Assembly: GCA_044226015.1 (NCBI GenBank)
Contig: JBGAHS010000001.1
Span: forward strand, 352,001-416,000
DNA length: 64,000 nt
Source: Candidatus Obscuribacteraceae bacterium
Lineage (GTDB): Bacteria > Cyanobacteriota > Vampirovibrionia > Obscuribacterales > Obscuribacteraceae
Direction: 5' to 3'
How positions within the stretch are numbered: the first letter of the stretch is position 1; the number at the start of each line of letters is the position of its first letter. The notes beneath the pieces were generated by a model that was not told the DNA's origin, did not search any database, and saw only the letters and a list, made by a program, of their open reading frames with translations. This document shows, piece by piece, positions 3,028 to 60,300 of the stretch. Made by a program: the position numbers and the translations under genes.

Positions 3028-3930
3028 ATGAAAATACTGGCGGCGGTTGACACTACCAAGCACTCTCAGAATGCTCTCAAATGCTTGAAGGGGCTAAACC
3101 TTAATCAAGATAGTGAAGTCAAGCTTGTCAAAGTTAGGAAGGGCGACCCCGGCAAAGGTGAAGCAGAGTCATACCTGCAGAAACTAACCGAGCAGTTAAA
3201 GAATGAACTCAACTGTAGTGTAAGTTACGAGGTTTTAGAGGGAGATCCCAAAAACAAGATTGTTGAAGCAATCAAAAGCTTCACAGCCGACCTTGCACTG
3301 TTGGGAACCCGTGGTCATAAGGGCATGGAATTGATGCTCTTAGGGAGCGTTTCGCAAGGCGTGTTGATGCAATCTCCTTGCCCTGTTCTCATAGTGAAAA
3401 ACAATGATGAGGACGAGTCGGGCTTGGGAAGTTTCCAGCGCATCATTCTAGCTGCAGATAATTCTGATTACTCGCAAGCTGCGTTGAATTGGCTCAAGAG
3501 ATTCAAGTGGAATGCGGATGCCTCGTTCAAAATTATTACTGTGATTCCGCATCTTTTTGAAAGCTTCGAAGATGAACACACTACCAGTATGACCAGCATT
3601 TTGGATCAGCAGCAAAGATTGCGTGAAGCTGCTGAGCGGCAACTGGAGTCTATGGCACGTTCTCTGGAGTCTCATTGTGGCTCTGAAGTGAGCATTGAAA
3701 TCACAGAAGGTGATCCCCGCGAAGAGGTTCTTCGTAGCGCCTCTGCTTGGAATGCCGATCTGATCGTAATGGGCTCTCATGGACGCACTGGACTTACCAA
3801 GCTCTTGTTGGGCAGCGTATCGCAGGCTGTTGCTCTTCATTCCGATTGCGCCGTAGCTATCGTTCGTGGGTTGGTGCAAAAGTCTAAAGTGATGCAGCAG
3901 ACAGGACGCTTCATCAAGCCTGGTAAGTAA
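3028..3930 (+). CDS. Universal stress protein (tandem USP domains)
   Basis: Two copies of G-D-P...DL..MG(T/S)(R/H)G..G...LLLGSVSQ.V.....C.V.IV. Confidence 0.92.
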   Translation: MKILAAVDTTKHSQNALKCLKGLNLNQDSEVKLVKVRKGDPGKGEAESYLQKLTEQLKNELNCSVSYEVLEGDPKNKIVEAIKSFTADLALLGTRGHKGMELMLLGSVSQGVLMQSPCPVLIVKNNDEDESGLGSFQRIILAADNSDYSQAALNWLKRFKWNADASFKIITVIPHLFESFEDEHTTSMTSILDQQQRLREAAERQLESMARSLESHCGSEVSIEITEGDPREEVLRSASAWNADLIVMGSHGRTGLTKLLLGSVSQAVALHSDCAVAIVRGLVQKSKVMQQTGRFIKPGK

Positions 3931-4032
3931 AGCAAGATCGTCCCTTACTCGCGAAGAGATTTAAAATACGAAACCCCGCTTGTGGCAGGGTTCCGTAAAG
4001 GGTAAAGGCTTGGGTTCGTTTGTAGTAATAGA

Positions 4033-4095
4033 TTAGCCGAATGGGTTTAGATTCAAAATGTAGAAGAGAGCAATCTTGCTTGCATAAATCTGCAC
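4033..4095 (-). CDS. Putative 20-aa small peptide (V/M)QIYASKIALFYILNLNPFG, repeat copy 1
   Basis: GTG..TAA, 63 nt, AAGGGTG upstream; same length and position as four other copies. Confidence 0.5.
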   Translation of the reverse strand: MQIYASKIALFYILNLNPFG

Positions 4096-4308
4096 GGTAT
4101 ACACCCTTTGAAAAAAACAGATTGCCTGGCGCTGCATTGCAGCAGGCTCTCGTTCCGTTTGATGTTTCGATTGCTTTTATTAGCGGCTAGCACTGCTTAG
4201 AAGAATTCGATCCCCTCGGTACACTCTATTAAAGCTTTAAAATACGAAACCCCGCTTGTGGCAGGGTTTCGTAAAGGGTAAAGGCTTGGGTTCGTTTGTA
4301 GAAGTAGA

Positions 4309-4371
4309 TTAGCCGAATGGGTTTAGATTCAAAATGTAGAAGAGAGCAATCTTGCTTGCATAAATCTGCAC
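4309..4371 (-). CDS. Putative 20-aa small peptide (V/M)QIYASKIALFYILNLNPFG, repeat copy 2
   Basis: GTG..TAA, 63 nt, same sequence as copy 1. Confidence 0.5.
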   Translation of the reverse strand: MQIYASKIALFYILNLNPFG

Positions 4372-4595
4372 GGTATACACCCTTTGAAAAAAAAAACAGA
4401 TTGCCTGGCGCTGCGCAGGCACATTACAGCAGGCTCTCGTTCCGTTTGATGTTTCGATTGCTTTTGTTAGCGGCTAGCGCTGATTAGAAGAATTCGATTT
4501 CTTCGGTACACTCTATTGAAGCTTTAAAATACGAAACCCCGCTTGTGGCAGGGTTCCGTAAAGGGTAAAGGCTTGGGTTCGTTTGTAGTAATAGG

Positions 4596-4658
4596 TTAGC
4601 TGAATGGGTTTGGATTCAAAATGTAGAAGAGAGCAAACTTGCTTGCATAAATCTGCAT
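4596..4658 (-). CDS. Putative 20-aa small peptide MQIYASKFALFYILNPNPFS, repeat copy 3
   Basis: ATG..TAA, 63 nt; forms the tail of ORF-track entry 4596..4859. Confidence 0.5.
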   Translation of the reverse strand: MQIYASKFALFYILNPNPFS

Positions 4659-4722
4659 CATGGGCCAGTCAGAATACAAAGTAGCTGTACTTCTATGATA
4701 TGCTGGCAGTGCTAGTTGCTGG

Positions 4723-5022
4723 ATGCTGAGCGCAATGTCGTCACCTGGATATTCTGCTTTGACCGATTGGTACCTCGCGCGGCTGCGAATTGCTGCGCAG
4801 GAAATGAAAGACGCAAACTTAACTCCACGAACTCTGTTGGAAGCTGATTTCGATCTCATCAGAAAGTTAGTTCAAAGTCGCGCCGAAATTCAAGATAAGC
4901 AATATGAACAGATTGTAGCCAGGTTCAGAGCGGAAAATCGCTTGATGTGGATAGCAGAGCTGGTGATATATCTTGTCGGATTTCTTGGAACCGTGGTTTT
5001 TTGTGTTCTGTATTTGATTTGA
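4723..5022 (+). CDS. Small hypothetical membrane protein (C-terminal TM helix), possibly a gene remnant
   Basis: 99-aa ORF ending WIAELVIYLVGFLGTVVFCVLYLI; an in-frame upstream ATG (4660) is interrupted by TGA at 4696. Confidence 0.4.
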   Translation: MLSAMSSPGYSALTDWYLARLRIAAQEMKDANLTPRTLLEADFDLIRKLVQSRAEIQDKQYEQIVARFRAENRLMWIAELVIYLVGFLGTVVFCVLYLI

Positions 5023-9273: not shown

Positions 9274-11355
9274 ATGGACAGACACTCACCCCGGGACAAT
9301 GAAACGCAATCGCACGAGGTTTCTGGTGCAAGCAAGGAATTCCCATCACAAGTTCGTGGTGAACTACACAATGCTGCTTATGAAGGGGCGATCAAAAATC
9401 TAAAGTGGCGTCCCCAAAATGACCCTGCTAATAAGGTTTTGAGTACACTTTCCTTTATTGATAAATCAGCGATTGTGGCAAAGGAGGGCGGCGCTGCGCT
9501 GAAAGATTCTGTTGTTGATTCTATTGTGGGCGTTCATAACATACATCTTGGTAAAGATGTTGATTTGCCTGTACCTAAGGCACTGGAGACAGTGGCTGCA
9601 GGTGCTGCAATTGGTTTCGCCTCTCGCACACTGCTTCCTCAGCTAGGTGTATTTGGTAAGTTGGGCAATGCTGCGTTGGCAGTGGCTCTTACTGCTCCGG
9701 TGGCAAAGCAGGCTTTTGATGCAGCCAATGAATTCAAGCATGCCAGAATGGAAAATGACCTTCGACATGCTTCACATGAAATGGGCGCAGTAGTTGGTAG
9801 TCTTGCAGCAAGCACACCCCTTGGTATTGCAGGCTTTAGAGCTGGTACTTTAGCTGCTGATCGCGTTCTAGTTTTGCCTTCAATGGCTGAATTCAATTCC
9901 AGCAAGGCTCAAAAATTCGATGCTGTGAATGATTGGATGCGTGAAAGAATAAATGATGGTGCGGCACATGCAAAAAATTTCGCTGTAGGTGAGAGCCGAT
10001 ATCCGGGCTCTCATGGCGTCGCTGAACAGTTCCCGCAAATTACCGATTCCTTGCGCAATGGAATTAAGGGGACTGATTACGCTTTGCCGACAGTCAAGCT
10101 GTCTGAAAATATAGGAAAGGACGCCCGCGTGTTGGTTGTTACAGGTCATGGTGTTGAGGCACCGGAATTTACTGAAGTCGTGAAAGCCATGAAAGGTGCC
10201 GGTGCTGAGGTTACTGTAGCAACTCCAGATTGGACATGGGATTATCAACCAAAAAATCCTGGTAAAGTCACACTGGCTCAATGGTTAGCGAATGACCACG
10301 TTCTGCAGGGCGATATCTCGGTTTCGAATGCGGCCAAGATGATGAGTGAGGGTAAATTTGATGCGATGTATATTCCAGGCGGCGCTGGAAACACTGCGGC
10401 TATAAGAACAGATTCGGCGATTCAAGCTCTAGTCAGGCAGTCACTTCAACAGAAGCTCGACACATGGACAATCTGTCATGGAGGCCAGGTCTTTGTTAGT
10501 GCTTTAGAGAAAAACTCGGGCATTAAGCTAACCGGTTCTGGCGATATAACTGCTCAAGATTTGCCAAACGCAGGTTTCGTTGTTCCGAAGGATCCTGTTG
10601 TGTTTGACTCGACTCATAAAATACTGAGTGGGAAGGATCCAAGTGTCTTGAACGAATTCATCACCGCCATTGGTGACAGATTCAAGAGTATACAAGAACG
10701 GAAACTTAGTCCGGTAGCAGCTGCTCCTAAGCCGTTCTCAACACCAGTTGAGCTGCTGGCGCAATCAATTGCAGAGCGTCCTCCTGTGCCATCGGCTTCA
10801 GAGCTTCGCTACCCTGGAGCAGCGCCAAGTTATCCTCGTGGTCTTCGAGCCGAGTCCTCTGCTGTTTCGGGATATCCAGAAGGGCTGGACAGTTGGAAGA
10901 GAACGGGACCCCGAGATACCGCCGTTGATACCAGTGCTGCGAAGATTCCACAGGGTGATACCAGATATCCTCAAAATAATCCCAACTATCCAAAAGAATT
11001 AGGTGGACCCGGTGCAGCAGCAGAAGTTCCCGTTCCAGCTGTTTCGGGATATCCAGAAGGGTTGGACAGTTGGAAGAGAACGGGACCCCGAGATACCGCC
11101 GTTGATACCAGTGCTGCGAAGATTCCACAGGGTGATACCAGATATCCTCAAAATAATCCCAACTATCCAAAAGAATTAGGTGGACCCGGTGCAGCAGCAG
11201 AAGTTCCTGTTCCAGCTGTTTCGGGATATCCAGAAGGGTTGGACAGTTGGAAGAGAACGGACCCCGAGATACCGCCGTTGATACCAGTGCTGCGAAGATT
11301 CCACAGGCTGATACCAGATATCCTCAAAATAATCCCAACTATCCAAAAGAATTAG
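9274..11355 (+). CDS. Protein with hydrophobic Gly/Ala-rich N-terminal region, DJ-1/PfpI domain and 59-aa C-terminal repeats
   Basis: GVEAPEF, IPGG and ICHG motifs of DJ-1/PfpI; 177-bp tandem repeats at the 3' end. Confidence 0.85.
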   Translation: MDRHSPRDNETQSHEVSGASKEFPSQVRGELHNAAYEGAIKNLKWRPQNDPANKVLSTLSFIDKSAIVAKEGGAALKDSVVDSIVGVHNIHLGKDVDLPVPKALETVAAGAAIGFASRTLLPQLGVFGKLGNAALAVALTAPVAKQAFDAANEFKHARMENDLRHASHEMGAVVGSLAASTPLGIAGFRAGTLAADRVLVLPSMAEFNSSKAQKFDAVNDWMRERINDGAAHAKNFAVGESRYPGSHGVAEQFPQITDSLRNGIKGTDYALPTVKLSENIGKDARVLVVTGHGVEAPEFTEVVKAMKGAGAEVTVATPDWTWDYQPKNPGKVTLAQWLANDHVLQGDISVSNAAKMMSEGKFDAMYIPGGAGNTAAIRTDSAIQALVRQSLQQKLDTWTICHGGQVFVSALEKNSGIKLTGSGDITAQDLPNAGFVVPKDPVVFDSTHKILSGKDPSVLNEFITAIGDRFKSIQERKLSPVAAAPKPFSTPVELLAQSIAERPPVPSASELRYPGAAPSYPRGLRAESSAVSGYPEGLDSWKRTGPRDTAVDTSAAKIPQGDTRYPQNNPNYPKELGGPGAAAEVPVPAVSGYPEGLDSWKRTGPRDTAVDTSAAKIPQGDTRYPQNNPNYPKELGGPGAAAEVPVPAVSGYPEGLDSWKRTDPEIPPLIPVLRRFHRLIPDILKIIPTIQKN

Positions 11356-11359
11356 GTGG
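10861..11359 (+). repeat. Intragenic 177-bp tandem repeat (~2.8 copies at 10861, 11038, 11215)
   Basis: GCTGTTTCGGGATATCCAGAAGGG... recurs at a 177-bp period; the third copy lacks one G. Confidence 0.95.
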
Positions 11360-11393
11360 TCCACGCAAATAGTTTTTTTTCCGAAACGAAACG

Positions 11394-11430: not shown

Positions 11431-11571
11431 CCTTCTATGGAACTTTTTCCTTGCCTTAAATGGAGTTCGTGCTGTCTGCTCGGCCGACTTGGTAGAGATT
11501 TAAAATACGAAACCCCGCTTTTGGCAGGGTTACGTAAAGGGTAAAGGCTTGGGTTCGTTTGTAGTAATAGA

Positions 11572-11634
11572 TTAGCTGATTGCTAATGCTATCGAAATGT
11601 AGAAGAGAGCAAAATTGTTTGCATGAATCTGCAT
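11572..11634 (-). CDS. Putative 20-aa hydrophobic peptide MQIHANNFALFYISIALAIS, repeat copy 4
   Basis: ATG..TAA, 63 nt, GAGGA upstream. Confidence 0.55.
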   Translation of the reverse strand: MQIHANNFALFYISIALAIS

Positions 11635-11782
11635 TGGTTTCTTCGTTCCTCAGTTGCTAATGGTTTGTCCTTGAATTTGTGCTGGTCCGGTCGGTTGACT
11701 TGGTAGAGATTTAAAATACGAAACCCCGCTTGTGGCAGGGTTCCGTAAAGGGTAAAGGCTTGGGTTCGTTTGTAGTCTAATA

Positions 11783-11845
11783 TTAGGCTGAGCTAAGTAA
11801 TCGAAGTAGGTGTAAGTGAGCAAAATAGCCTGTGTATTTCCACAT
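11783..11845 (-). CDS. Putative 20-aa peptide MWKYTGYFAHLHLLRLLSSA, repeat copy 5
   Basis: ATG..TAA, 63 nt; divergent sequence but same length and FA at residues 8-9. Confidence 0.45.
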   Translation of the reverse strand: MWKYTGYFAHLHLLRLLSSA

Positions 11846-54377: not shown

Positions 54378-57300
54378 TTATAACTTATCTACAAACAACT
54401 CAGTACCTCGCCTCAACTGTGGATAGGTATGGAACGCAGAACTTCCGTTATTGGTGTCTTTCGTTCCAGTTCCACCAAGCATGAGCCGGTCTCCTGGTTT
54501 AATTTCCTGGGTTCCCACGAGAGCTTCCCACTTATCCGTGTTCGCTCTCATTATGTATGTTCCGTAAGTTGAGCCTTTGTCTTTGGCGTAAAGTTTGCCA
54601 GACGCGTCTTTGGTCAGCTGCAGATGTTCTCTGGAAACATTGCGATTAAAATACGGTGAAGCTACGTCTTCCAGGACATCTCGCTGATGATTGCGTCCAA
54701 TCTCCAGCGGAGTGCCATCAGCTTCCACTCTTAATTGCATTCCTCCGAAATCTATTTTGTTTGCAACGGCTTCGACCTTTGCCGGGGCTGAAGCGAACAA
54801 CTTCAATTCTGTGCCGTAGCGTTTAGCTGGGTCCGCATCCCACGCTACAGATGGAGTGTCGGAGGTTCCACCTAACATTACGCGGTCGCCTGGCTGTACT
54901 TCAGTCTTGCTTGTTACGGCTTCCCATCGATTGCTGCCATTACGCTGAATGTAGGTGCCGTTGCTGGAATTGTTGTCTGTTATGAATACTCTTCCATCTG
55001 CTTCGCGGTTGACGACTGCGTGAGAGCGCGACACGTTCTTATTATTGAACGGTGAGTTGTCAGCACCGAGGGTTTGTTGATGTGACCGGCCAACGCTGAG
55101 CGCTGGTCCGCCTGCTGCCAGGTCGAGCTGCTCGCCGCCGATGCCAATATTCACTTTGGCTTCTGGCGTTAACTTAGACCCCGGTGCAACCGGTGCCATG
55201 GGGGCATCGAATCCACTGGGCGATTTCACCGTACCAAGCAACAGGTCGGTGGGGTCTTTCCCTTCGGGCAAATATTTGTTCGCCAGGGCGTAATACGCTT
55301 GTCTGTCAGTCAAGTCTCCTGCTTGCTTGCTTGCGCTGCTTTCGTCCAGATATAAGCGGGGACCATCGCCTCCTTCCCTGACTCTGGATCCGTTAGACTG
55401 AGCTGCAAGCGAGAGGTTTGAGTCTCGGTCATAACCAAGTGTGTTAGGACGCAGTCCCGCATTCTTTTCCACTTGCCGTAATTGATCGCTTGTTAAACGC
55501 TCACCGGGCTTCAGTCCCATTTGCGAATGGATATGATCTGCCAGCGGTTTGTCGAGCTTCGCTGCAATATCGCTATCCATTCTTGTTATCTGGTAGAAGT
55601 CTCGAACGATGCCTACTCGGTTCGAGCTGCCAGTTACTTTGTCGATGTTTCCAGTGTCGATTGGTTTTGCTCGACCCAGATTTTTTTCCGTAAGTATTCT
55701 GTCTATTTCTTTTTGTACAGCAACCGCATCTTCCGGAGTCTTTGTGAATACGGTGAAACCTTTTGCTTCCTGTCCCTTTCCTGTTGGAGAGAAAGTGCCT
55801 TCTGGAGCCGTTCCTGCGCCGACTTTAGGATCGAATGTTTTCCATCCGTGAATCTTGGATGCTAGCGCTGGATTCTTTTCAAGCTCAGGAATCAGAGCCT
55901 CTTGCAATTTGCCGAGGTCTGCATTTCCATCTGTTGTCACATGAACTTTTACGGCTCCGGGTGGACCAGAATCGAGTTTTCCATAAAACCAATCTTGTTG
56001 CGGTGTTTTGATTAGTTTGAATTGATCGCCGTTGATTTCGACTTGCCGCAGGAATGGCATGTCGTTCGGCTCGCTGACTTTCATTCTCTTCGGAAATTCA
56101 GGTGCTGCATCCTTTGGAAGTGCTGCGCGATCGAATGCATCGATTTTAACTTCCGTGCCGAAGCGTTTTGCTGGATCTTTGTCTGCCACCGCAGATGGTG
56201 TCTCGCTGGTTCCGCCCAGCATTACCTTGTCTCCAGGCTGAACCTCGGTTCTTCCTGTCACTGTTTCCCACTTATCTGAGCCATTGCGCTTGATATAGGT
56301 TCCATTGCTGGAGTTATTATCAGTGATAAACACTTTGCCGTCGGCGTCTCGACTGAGCGTGGCGTGATTTCGAGATACATTCAAATTCTCGTGTGGGCTA
56401 TTCGACCCGAGAGAGGTTTGATGTGAACGTCCCAATGGAACTGAGGGACCGCCTGCTTCTAAATTGATTTTGTCGCCACCAATTCCAAGTCCGACATTTG
56501 CCTCTGCACTGAAAGATGGTTTTGCAGCCTGCGGGAGGGCTTGAACAGGTGGTGCTTCAAATTTTGGAGATTTGACCAGGCCCGCAGCTAAATCTGCAGG
56601 ACCTTGTCCTTCGGGAAGATACTTGTTTGACAGTGCGTAAAAAGCTTGTCTGTCCGTCAAATCACCAAATTCTTTTCCAGCCTTTCCTTCATCAAGGTAA
56701 ATGCGCGGACCGCTGCCGCCATCATGCATGCCGCTTGAGCGAGATTGTGCGATGAGCGAAAGATTGTTGTCCCTATCATAAGCGAGCGTTTCCGGTCTCA
56801 ACCCAGCCGCTTTTTCCACCTGTCGAAGCTGTTCGGGAGACAGCTTTTGACCAGGTTGCAAGCCCATTTGAGCCTGAATGTGCTCGGCTAGTGGTTTGTC
56901 CAATCGGGCTGCAAGATTGCCATCGACTTGAGTTGGTTCAAATTGGTCTCGAACGATTCCAACTCGGTTGGATGATCCTTTTATCTGGTCGATATTACCG
57001 GTGTCTATCGGTGTCGAACGACCCAGTCCTTTTTCAGTAAGTACTCTGTCAATTTCCTTCTGCAGAGCTACTGCATCTTCAGGAGTTCGGGCGTAGATTG
57101 TGAATGCTTTTGCTCCCTGTCCTTTGCCATTGGGCAACCATGCGCCTGGTCCTGCGTTACCAGCACCAATTTCGGGGTCAAATGTTTTCCAACCATGAAC
57201 TTTCGCTGCTAGTTCCGGATTCTTATTCAGTGCCGGAATTAATGCCTCTTGTAGCTTTCCAAGGTCTTGAACTCCGTCTGTCATCACATGGATTTTGACA

Positions 57301-60300
57301 GGAGCTTCCCCTTGGGCAAACTTACCGTAATACCAAACTTGAGGTCCGCCTTTGACCAGTCTGAAGTTTTCACCATCTATATTTACTTCGCGAACACCAG
57401 GCATATCTTCGGGAGAGCTGACTTTCATCTTAAGCCCTGGCGTTCCGTCATTAGGCACTACTGCAGCTTTGCGTTCGAGTGCTTCAATGTGCAGTTCTGT
57501 GCCACGTCGTTTGGCCGGGTTTGTTAGGAATTCTGAATCGCGAACATCTTGTGTGCCGGTTCCGGCCAACATCACTTTGTCGCCAGGTTTTATTTCTGTC
57601 TTCCCTTGCACCTTTTCCCAGTTGTTGGAACCGTCTCTCTTTATGTAAGTTCCTGCAGTTGAATTGTTGTCTGTGATGTAGACCTTGCCGTCGGAAGTCT
57701 GATGGATATGGCCATGTTCGCGTGAAACATTTGTATTGAAATGCTCCGACGAGGGGTTTGCTATTCCGTCCTGATGGTATCGTCCAAGTGGCACTGAAGG
57801 ACCACCCGGTTCAAGTTTTAGTTTCTCACCGCCGAGTCCAACGCTAGCGATTTCTTTTGTCGATGGAGGGAGATCGGCTACTGCTGCAGGCTTCGCAAGT
57901 GACTCCGGACGTGGAACTCGTCCACTTGCCAGGTCAACCGGATCGTAACCTTCGGGTAGATATTTGTTGGTTAGCGCGTACATTGCTTGTCGATCTGTGA
58001 GATCTCCAGCAGCTTTACTCGCGTTGCTTTCATCAAGATAAATTCGAGGTGTGCCGCGATCGCTTATTCTAGAATGACGCGATTGACCAAGTAGCGCAAG
58101 TTCCCCATTGCGATCATAAGCTAGGGTACCCGGCCTGATACCAGCGTCTTTTTCCACTTGTCTCAATTGAGCGTCAGTGAGCTTTTGTCCTTCCGGAACA
58201 CCTAATTTAGAATTGATGTGGGCTGCAAGTTCGCGATCTAAGAGGGCACCATCTACGGGGCTATTTGGCAGGTCTGCTGGATGGAAATAATCACGCACAA
58301 TTCCAACACGGTTTGAGCTTCCTCTGATCGAGTCAACGTTTCCTGTTGAAATTCCATGCTCTCTGCCGAGACCCTTAGCAGTTAGAATTTCGTCAATTCG
58401 CTTCTGAACTGCAAGCGCATCCTCTGCTGTTTTTGTGTACAGAGTGAATGCCTTCGCACTTTGCCCTACCCCATCTGGCGCTTTCTCGAGATTTCTTCCA
58501 ACACCAACTTCAGGGTCGAAAGTCTTCCAGCCTGAAACTTTTGCTGCTAATTCCGGATCGTTTTTCAGTGCAGGAATAATGGTCTCTTGGAGTTTGCCGA
58601 GGTCTGCAGCACCATCTGTCACTACATGTACTTTCGCAACAGCGCTTTCTCCCTCTGGGAATTTTCCGTAATACCAGAAATCGCGAGGCGGACGCATAAG
58701 GTCGAACTGTTGACCATTTATTTCGACCTTCTTCCAGGCTTCGCTGTCGGCATGTACTTTCATCTCTTTTGGGAAGTTCTTCGCCGCAGCTTCTCTTTCC
58801 AATGCTTCGGTCTTCAAGCCAAAGAGTTCGCGCGCGCCCTTATTTCCTGCCGGAACTTCGCCATCGGACTTCTTACCAAAGCCCCAGAGTGCTTCGTTGA
58901 CTGGTTGTTTTTGTCCTAGTTCTGGTGGCGTTTCAAGTTGTGGACGGATTTCGGCCGTATGATCAAATTTTGCCTTTGATTTGCCCCTTATGCCCGTGGC
59001 TTTTTGCAGTTCATCCAACATGTTCATGTTGTTGTTGGGGCCGCCATATGGAGTCAGGATATTTGTAGTTAGACCAGAGTCGTGTCCTGGTTTGAAGAGT
59101 TTATAGTTACCGAATACTTTTTCCTGATCTGTCAGTCCGAGACGTGCCAATGTTGCCGGGTCATACAATTGTTTGTATGTCTGATTAGATAGAACAGTGA
59201 CATCCATATCCTTCAATGGAAGGTAGCGAGAATCTTTTTGCCAGAGTAGCCATGGGTTCGTTTCGGTTTCAAATTTGCCCATGGTGGCAACTACAACTTT
59301 GCCACCAGATTGCTTCAGCATAGTGGCATTGTCTTTGACAACACCAGCAGCTTGCCGTCCGCTCAGGGAGAAGTCATCCAAGTAGACCAGAACCTTGCCT
59401 TTGGCACCATCTGGACCCAAAGCAGCCAGTTCTTTTGCTGTTATGAAATTAGCAGAGCCCAGATCGTTAGCTGTGGCGTACATTTTCGCCGAGATCATCT
59501 GGCTGCCAATATTGTCAATCTTATCTAAGGACTTGCCTGCTGCTTTTGCTGCGGCAATTTGTCCTTCGTATTCAAGTCCGGTCACAAGCATGATGTCAGA
59601 CGGCTTGGTGCCAGGCGGGAGCTCTGCCATAAGCTTCTGATGCAGTTCGTGGAATTCTTTGAGTTGTTGTGTATACGATTTGTACTCAACTCCATGTTCA
59701 AGAATTTGACCTGCAAATGACTTGATTTCTGGGCTCTTGATTGAAGCCAGATAAGACTCAAGTTGCTGCTTCGTCAGCTGAGGGGCAGTAAACTGATCGT
59801 ACATCGATCCGATTCTGTACTGTTCGCTACCTCCAACCTTATCTCGTAGTTGCTTTCCTGGTAGCTGCTGTTCTGGTTGCAGAACTGTCGTTTTTGGATT
59901 TATTTCCGTTGCTAGTTTCGCGGTGTCGCCTTCCAATATCTTCTTCACAGCGGCTTCACTGCTCAGACCTGGTTCAGCTGCTTGCAATGCCTTGGCTTTC
60001 TCTACTATTCCTGCAATCTTGTCTTGCATACCTTTGGTGCCTGCGAATTGGCTGGCACCAAAATCAATGAAATTGACTCCCTTGTCGAAACCGTTGATAT
60101 TGCTCACGTAGAGTCTGTCAACTTGAGAAAGAGCTTGCTTTTGCGCTGCAGTTGCAGTGCTCAGGTCGCCGAGAATTAGTGCACGATTTGGCATTCCTTC
60201 AGCTGCAAGTTGTTTCATTCCGGCAGCATCAAGAGTAACAACATGAACCTTGAGTTGATCTTGATTCTTTCTAAGTAATTGTGCCAGCATTTCAGCAGAA

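Follow-up and report, generated by a model that had tools for sequence, protein, structure and literature searches.

A family of predicted small RNA genes with a shared palindromic operator in one genus of Obscuribacterales

The five repeat units on the minus strand of the window (the whole 64-kb stretch of DNA that was analysed, G000:C11:352001-416000, from an 8.2-Mb genome, G000, that is 92% complete) are very probably stand-alone genes of a non-coding RNA of about 60 nt, as predicted from sequence comparison. Our preferred reading, to which we give a probability of roughly 0.65, is that they are sibling small RNAs (sRNAs) activated by a response regulator, which would silence a few mRNAs through a 5′ seed that pairs across the ribosome-binding region of each. 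The gene itself was recognised by its promoter geometry, an unpaired head, a covarying terminator, its occurrence in 1-8 copies and the enrichment of its operator. The family appears real and of a known kind, with no earlier description found in the literature; its predicted gene anatomy is well supported, the case for the operator is strong and the proposed activator is plausible. One predicted target is well supported, and a second one less so.

Anatomy of the repeat units and the 20-codon frame

Five minus-strand copies, reported previously in an earlier note on this DNA with cores at 3960, 4236, 4523, 11499 and 11710, were found again in two arrays, each copy with a hairpin and a T run. 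The five peptide sequences listed in the note were also reproduced, and both arrays face convergent genes as it had described, one for a Usp protein (3028-3930) and the other for a DJ-1/PfpI protein (9274-11355). The exact 15-mer core was found seven times in G000 against 0.014 expected, five times in the window and once in each of two copies outside it, G000:C3:336669+ (core C3:336671+) and G000:C1:926846- (core C1:926844-), making seven copies in 8.2 Mb. Other features of the window are a tandem array of three 177-nt repeats (10861-11390) within the 3′-terminal part of the DJ-1/PfpI gene, the third with a 1-nt shift that alters the C-terminus of the protein; a 99-aa hypothetical gene on the plus strand (4723-5022), divergent from copy 3 and 65 nt off its operator, with similar genes in a further record, L031 (9521-10000), and at G000:C1:990532; and three diverged direct repeats spaced by about 1340 nt (55599-58634), probably paralogous genes.

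In copy 1 (3960..4023, minus strand), the predicted +1 is at 4023 and the RNA would end in the T run near 3960, both ends being inferred from the -10 spacing and the terminator. The RNA of about 60 nt consists of a near-invariant 24-nt 5′ head, the predicted seed (4000..4023), which is unpaired in the consensus fold, and a terminator hairpin of 13 bp (3967..3997) followed by the T run. Upstream on the same strand are a -10 box, TAATCT (4030..4035, -12 to -7 from the predicted +1), a proximal box ending in ACAT and defined by column conservation (4058..4073, centred at -42.5), and a distal 16-bp palindromic operator (4080..4095, centred at -64.5). The remaining copies, also on the minus strand, repeat this arrangement: copy 2 (4236..4299) has its promoter at 4306..4371 (-10 box 4306-4311, proximal box 4334-4349, operator 4356-4371) and copy 3 (4523..4586) at 4593..4658 (4593-4598, 4621-4636 and 4643-4658, respectively). 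At locus 2, copy 4 (11499..11562) has its promoter at 11569..11634 (11569-11574, 11597-11612 and 11619-11634) and copy 5 (11710..11773) at 11780..11845 (11780-11785, 11808-11823 with ACCT for ACAT, and 11830-11845).

Copies 1-3 are recent duplicates. Spacer 1 (4097..4235), carried within the tandem duplication and seen at locus 1 only, and spacer 2 (4373..4522) share 87% identity, and the locus 1 spacer was found nowhere else in G000 nor in 12 relatives' loci. Upstream of the ORF, the note had placed a hairpin with a variable T tract in the spacers. The tracts are present, as A7 and A10 runs on the plus strand of two spacers; the hairpin proved no more stable than shuffled sequences (z 0.71) and was found in the two locus 1 spacers only, not in 12 relatives' loci.

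Alignment of 34 distinct upstream regions showed three sets of conserved columns, namely the 16-bp palindrome, the second box ending in ACAT, and TAnnnT, with T-14, A-13, T-9 and C-39 invariant. The positions of the boxes (-64.5, -42.5 and -12 to -7) follow from placing +1, by inference, at the A that opens ACAAACG. Arrays of two to six copies were found, each copy with its own operator, ACAT, -10 box and terminator; the upstream box is shifted in the G003 and G005 arrays, and ACAT is present in 7/7 metagenome copies. G000, G002, G003, G006 and G007 each have a single copy of a longer subtype, which contains an additional short stem. A scan for sigma-70 -35/-10 pairs returned 0 sites, which is consistent with an activator-dependent promoter.

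The covariation check suggested in the note favoured a conserved RNA structure. In an alignment of 26 of the 34 distinct sequences, with the longer subtype left out and with counts inflated by related copies, 7 of the 10 pairs of the terminator stem showed two-sided changes, 97.3% of cells were paired and 0 of 500 shuffles reached the score; slid controls were paired at 33-62%. Good folding was confined to the minus strand (z -3.96), whereas the plus strand folded no better than shuffles (z 0.68), and no conserved block was found past the terminator.

The units had been read in the note primarily as a 63-nt ORF followed by a hairpin, encoding a type I toxin or a leader peptide. The 20-codon peptide is likely the promoter of the RNA gene read in frame; the ORF coincides with the operator and the -10 box. 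In copy 1 (4033..4095, minus strand) its start codon is the NTG of the operator and its stop codon the TAA of TAATCT, the frame itself being unconserved as an ORF, and the length of 20 codons arises because the operator NTG and the TA of the -10 box stand 60 bp apart. A start, an open frame and a stop do exist in 5/5 window copies; the figure of exactly 20 codons depends on the start chosen, and taking the first in-frame start within 95 nt gave frames of 23, 23, at least 27, 20 and 20 codons, the frame of copy 3 being the end of an 87-aa ORF at 4596-4859. The claim that the frame is under selection for translation was contradicted by identities of 0.54, 0.69 and 0.72 at codon positions 1, 2 and 3 among the four distinct window ORFs; conservation peaks at third positions, opposite to what coding selection would give. 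The F/I-A kept at residues 8-9, offered as a peptide feature, is the TTGC of the proximal operator half-site.

Whether the ORF always precedes the core, a check proposed in the note, was scored in 46 copies (5 in the window, 2 elsewhere in G000, 32 in six relatives and 7 distinct metagenome copies, after four short or duplicate metagenome matches were dropped). A start, frame and stop at the window positions were found in 0/2 of the other G000 copies, 0/32 of the relatives' copies and 0/7 of the metagenome copies, thus in 0/41 outside the window. In the same 41 copies TAnnnT was retained at the stop position in 40: in 1/2 of the other G000 copies (shifted in the second), 32/32 in the relatives and 7/7 in the metagenomes, in addition to 5/5 in the window. 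An intact ORF in 0/41 other copies is what the note itself had said would refute its peptide reading.

We give almost no credence to the idea that each copy encodes a hydrophobic peptide of 20 residues, be it a type I toxin or a leader peptide. The five window peptides have GRAVY values of 0.31-1.19, all five frames have a start and a stop, and purine-rich stretches stand upstream of the ORF in copies 1/2 and 4; however, such a stretch, which might serve as a Shine-Dalgarno sequence, was found in only 2/4 distinct window copies, in upstream columns that are unconserved, and in 16 copies from relatives the mean GRAVY of this frame is -0.04. Together with the loss of the ORF and the codon-position pattern given above, the peptides gave no Pfam or NCBIfam match, the frame sits upstream of the predicted transcription start, and past the terminator there is no conserved block able to drive an antisense RNA. 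By contrast, the secondary guess of the note, an unannotated sRNA family, was supported. For scans of this kind, a fixed 60-bp spacing from operator to -10 box can look like a conserved 20-codon hydrophobic ORF.

Distribution, copy number and neighbouring genes

With at most one mismatch allowed, the 17-mer core was found in 6/7 relatives of the same genus, 1-8 times each, and outside the genus as three single matches among 53 other genomes. An exact 17-mer scan of GTDB returned 75 stretches, with about 70 chance matches expected by a hand estimate; the 16 titled Obscuribacterales or Obscuribacteraceae carry the full element, and none of the other 59 runs on into the head and hairpin. The 17-mer also directly follows (T/C)TGC, with no terminator, in one Geminicoccaceae record and several from Acidobacteria; these may represent a distinct, widespread repeat with the core in common. 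Five further stretches came from metagenomes and 0 matches from viral contigs. No Rfam family came near its gathering score for window 3800-4800 and four other loci.

A covariance model run on 104 family genomes found intact heads in one genus only, with 7 copies in G000, 5 in G002, 7 in G003, 1 in G004, 8 in G005, 8 in G006 and 4 in G007; the sRNA is thus present in 7/8 genomes of one Obscuribacterales genus. Inspection of 23 weaker matches outside the genus showed plain terminators or coding DNA. The sRNA is missing from only one of the genus genomes searched, G001 (91% complete at 4.2 Mb), which likewise lacks a close regulator orthologue and any match to target 1 or the TGCCAA promoter and contains a single operator site (see below). 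No sRNA described for Obscuribacterales was found in a literature search that covered mainly openly available papers.

Copies recur beside recN (G000, G004, G006 and G007), hslO (G002, G003, G005 and G007) and a small GTPase gene (G003, G005 and G006), and at the end of a putative bioA-like (biotin-type) operon (G000, G002 and G007). The genes downstream of the copies differ and point either way. Recurring neighbours combined with such variable downstream genes fit vertical inheritance with local tandem duplication.

Explaining the unit as a cis element or inert repeat spread by duplication, such as an attenuator leader, a plain terminator or a REP/MITE-like sequence, seems very improbable to us. 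Several relatives do have a gene on the same strand that begins about 50-300 nt past the last copy; however, the downstream genes differ and occur in either orientation, and both window arrays face convergent genes. The recent duplication of copies 1-3 would fit an inert repeat, but a genome has just 1-8 copies, recurring beside the same genes, each keeping its own -10 box and operator, and no viral contig matched. REP and MITE sequences are many, dispersed and untied to loci or promoters, unlike these few repeats with recurring neighbours and their own promoter. At lengths of 25 nt or more, no terminal inverted repeats or target-site duplications were reported. The REP/MITE or shared-terminator fallback of the note is likewise at odds with the promoter-like geometry and the invariant unpaired head of each copy.

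The palindromic operator and a candidate regulator

The palindrome is, by sequence comparison, a genus-wide operator that also stands before a NarL-like response regulator gene and a second predicted small RNA. When a matrix trained only on 28 relatives' promoters was run on G000, six sites exceeded 25 bits, five of which are the window copies, and permuted matrices gave 0. The exact pattern CTGYRNAATTNYRCAG occurs at 8, 8, 7, 10, 9 and 12 sites in G000, G002, G003, G004, G006 and G007, against about 0.5 expected by chance and 0-1 in reversed controls; G005 (70% complete) and G001 have one site each, and 26/36 family genomes have at least one. At more than 12 bits, the operator precedes 138 of 5837 called genes in G000, compared with 18-78 for permuted matrices. 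A -10 box at the same spacing was slightly enriched over 510 oriented operator-like sites (12 versus about 6), so the size of the regulon is uncertain. The operator would mark tens of promoters genus-wide, many of them before hypothetical proteins.

Proteins with polar or acidic N-termini, a class defined after the matches were seen, were enriched behind the operator (8/52 by a strict and 15/176 by a broad definition). This large class of hypothetical proteins has a polar/acidic start and an L..EA-type motif, as in C11:21541+, C10:498418-, C9:426832+ and C1:784970+ and in window 9274-11355. Because neither FHIPEP (type III export gate) nor a VirB4-family gene was found in any of the 8 genus genomes, we do not claim these proteins as secreted effectors.

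The second predicted small RNA (G000:C3:309141-309214, minus strand) has the same operator, a -10 box and a strong terminator. It is near-invariant in 4/7 genus relatives, shares CGAACCC with the repeats and gave no Rfam match near the cut-off.

The regulator candidate, G000:C6:375581+, is a receiver-domain protein with a NarL-like C-terminus. The operator was found upstream of this gene in 6/6 orthologues, with a mean of 12.8 bits against 2.1-8.4 for 20 permuted matrices; in five of them the best site is followed by ACAT in register, and in G003 a site in register lies 25 nt farther along. Orthologues at 75-88% identity are present in 5/7 relatives, G001 having only a 36% paralogue, and in G003 and G006 no more than about 600 nt separate the gene from an sRNA copy. 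The DNA-binding domain scored below the Pfam (GerE) and NCBIfam cut-offs, with an Atlas lead at 0.93 to GerE-bearing clusters. The NarL-like subfamily to which it belongs (in G000 C6:375581, C1:1240064, C9:469400, C13:61098 and C11:31473) was found in 32/36 family genomes and in 0/24 outside the family. On this sequence evidence the odds are about even that the activator is G000:C6:375581(+) or a paralogue sharing its recognition helix, and the operator before the regulator gene could also reflect control by another factor. A search for an autoregulated regulator among 16 Pfam GerE genes gave no convincing candidate (best upstream score 9.2).

Predicted targets, mode of action and related systems

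Candidate targets were nominated from the start regions of G000, and six were tested in the relatives' orthologues, a seventh having no usable orthologue; pairing energies ignore target accessibility, and gene starts were from a crude in-house caller. Target 1, the gene of a 108-aa Cys-rich protein (G000:C11:946413-946739, minus strand), ranked 2/5837 by energy in G000 and 1/95 among those with at least 9 contiguous pairs. In six relatives it gave -23.0 versus -15.8 kcal/mol, with 0/1000 dinucleotide shuffles as strong, and it passed with every start-region window. It has 13 contiguous pairs with the head in G000, 16 in each of G003 and G005, and 10, 8, 7 and 7 in the rest. Since G003 and G005 are close kin, the support leans on both: 2/1000 shuffles were as strong when G005 was removed, 50/1000 when both were removed, and 111/1000 when the shared CGAACCC core was also held fixed. 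Four homologues outside the genus did not pass (81/500). We judge the 108-aa gene, from predicted pairing, to be somewhat favoured as a real target.

The protein product of target 1 matched no Pfam, NCBIfam or Atlas family, has only 7 homologues, and gave a model with pTM 0.36 and no PDB fold match. In its mRNA (G000:C11:946290-946900, minus strand) there are a hairpin at the 5′ end, a G-rich ribosome-binding region and a second hairpin at the 3′ end, whose C-rich loop is complementary to the G-rich region; the two ends change together in G025, outside the genus. This 3′ loop fits the same site as the sRNA, and fits it better than the sRNA in G002 and G007. In 5/7 genomes the sRNA forms the longer pairing (13/9, 16/9, 16/9, 10/6 and 8/5 pairs for sRNA/loop). 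The second small RNA is complementary to both flanks of the loop.

Target 2 (G000:C5:240663+) has two seed-matching segments in four orthologues and passed only after the window was widened (98, 29 and 1 of 1000 shuffles with the start region taken from -35, -50 and -70). C4:272721, C1:167186, C8:65477 and the regulator did not pass (44-104, 57-76, 78-101 and 700-877 of 1000), and six control gene sets gave 44-308 of 400. Feedback on the regulator's own mRNA was rejected on that result, and C8:65477, the best duplex in its own genome (-31.5), has one orthologue and was not significant. Seed-complement 7- and 8-mers were not enriched at start codons genome-wide, and general targeting of proteins with polar or acidic N-termini was discarded, as shuffled seeds gave a similar bias.

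Target 1 and C4:272721 share a rare promoter with a fourfold TGCCAA repeat, of which G000 has three strong genes. In this promoter type four repeats with an 11-bp period precede the -10 box (G000:C4:272608, C11:946836 and C11:323675, and relatives); it gave 1-4 exact matches per genus genome and 0 in reversed controls. Two paralogues of C4:272721 with 15 and 12 pairs came out of a pattern search and are not independent; of 20 sites fetched in the pattern search for paired sites, 4 were just before a start. The whole TGCCAA-promoter set found no support as targets: four genes chosen by promoter alone did not pass (158/1000).

The mechanism we propose is as follows. A response regulator of the NarL type would bind the palindromic operator and likely switch the RNA gene on; the invariant C-rich 5′ head would pair with G-rich sequence at or near the ribosome-binding sites of a few mRNAs, likely blocking their translation. 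The RNA dose would rise with tandem duplication. Repression by base pairing is, on the sequence evidence, a quite probable mode of action. In G000, one Hfq gene of the cyanobacterial type (Hfq_1) and no other was found, and CsrA was not found in this genome (92% complete).

Three other accounts accept the RNA gene and differ in what it does. The RNA could be a decoy whose unpaired A/C-rich head sequesters a protein as CsrB/Rsm RNAs do, with the dose set by copy number. The CsrB/RsmXYZ decoys are multi-copy sRNAs behind a palindromic upstream operator and carry repeated GGA loops, and the GacA-Rsm and LetA-RsmY/Z circuits combine multi-copy RNAs with the palindromic operator of a NarL-family regulator, as is proposed here. 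CGAACCC is likewise exposed in the other RNA behind the operator and in the target 1 3′ loop, which is what a common protein-binding site would show, and the target statistics are uneven. Nevertheless, a decoy is unlikely: the motif occurs once per RNA and conserved GGA loops are missing, unlike in CsrB/RsmXYZ, CsrA was not found in G000 (92% complete), and a decoy does not predict runs of 13-16 contiguous pairs at a start-codon region, as seen in three genomes, or of 15 in a G002 gene.

Equally doubtful, or slightly more so, is a base-pairing RNA with different true targets, either other mRNAs or another RNA; conservation of the sites described above would then reflect pairing with the second sRNA or with the 3′ loop of the same mRNA. 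Within the target 1 mRNA, 5-9 bp form between the 3′ loop and the 5′ region, and the two co-change in G025; the significance drops to the level given above once the core is fixed and G003 and G005 are removed. Against this, the pairing of the sRNA that exceeds the 3′ loop in most genomes uses bases that only the sRNA family has, and target 2 matches the family-specific 5′ half of the head. We would also entertain, as a rather speculative extension, that the repeats are antitoxin-like RNAs forming a dose-tuned switch by which the programme of one regulator silences genes of another. The unlinked mRNA of the Cys-rich protein would lock its own ribosome-binding site by its C-rich 3′ loop, covarying between genera; the genus would have evolved two free-standing CGAACCC RNA families under one response regulator, one of them amplified to as many as eight copies; and the target itself has a different promoter from that of the sRNA, the one with the TGCCAA repeats.

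We return to the sibling-sRNA reading for comparison with known systems. If it is right, an sRNA family with a mapped operator, a candidate activator and candidate targets would be available in Obscuribacterales, a non-photosynthetic sister lineage of oxygenic cyanobacteria, and target 1 with the sRNA head would be an RNA-mRNA pair testable by a reporter. Type I toxin-antitoxin loci (Ibs/Sib, Ldr/Rdl) are tandem repeats with hairpins whose toxin mRNAs have 5′-3′ interactions (T1TAdb, PMC8594479). Tandem repeats with hairpins are found here too, and a comparable 5′-3′ interaction is predicted in the target mRNA rather than the repeat, the 3′ loop of that mRNA being complementary to its ribosome-binding region. 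In contrast to these loci, the repeat lacks a conserved ORF, no cis-antisense partner was recognised in it, and the predicted target protein is Cys-rich instead of a hydrophobic helix.

In E. coli, a response regulator activates the redundant siblings OmrA and OmrB, whose 5′ end is conserved and pairs close to the translation starts of several targets (PMC2588501). The present RNAs resemble them as siblings with a conserved unpaired 5′ end and an intrinsic terminator, activation and pairing here being predicted, and differ in having up to eight copies, a C-rich head, no predicted pairing with the leader of their own regulator (see above) and a host with only cyanobacterial-type Hfq. NsiR1 of heterocyst-forming cyanobacteria is about 60 nt long, occurs in 12 tandem copies with individual promoters under one master regulator, and inhibits translation by pairing at translation initiation regions (PMC9045159, PMC4030482). 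It belongs to the same phylum, and its tandem, slightly divergent siblings of similar length with their own promoters match the arrays predicted here. The differences from NsiR1 are the lack of an Rfam match, neighbours that include recN, hslO and Usp among others and not hetF, the 16-bp palindrome with a likely NarL-type activator, several loci per genome, and a non-photosynthetic lineage. If our reading is right, the NsiR1 design has arisen with unrelated sequence in the same phylum; in its predicted anatomy the family is built like NsiR1, it likely works like OmrA/B, and it is a member of neither.
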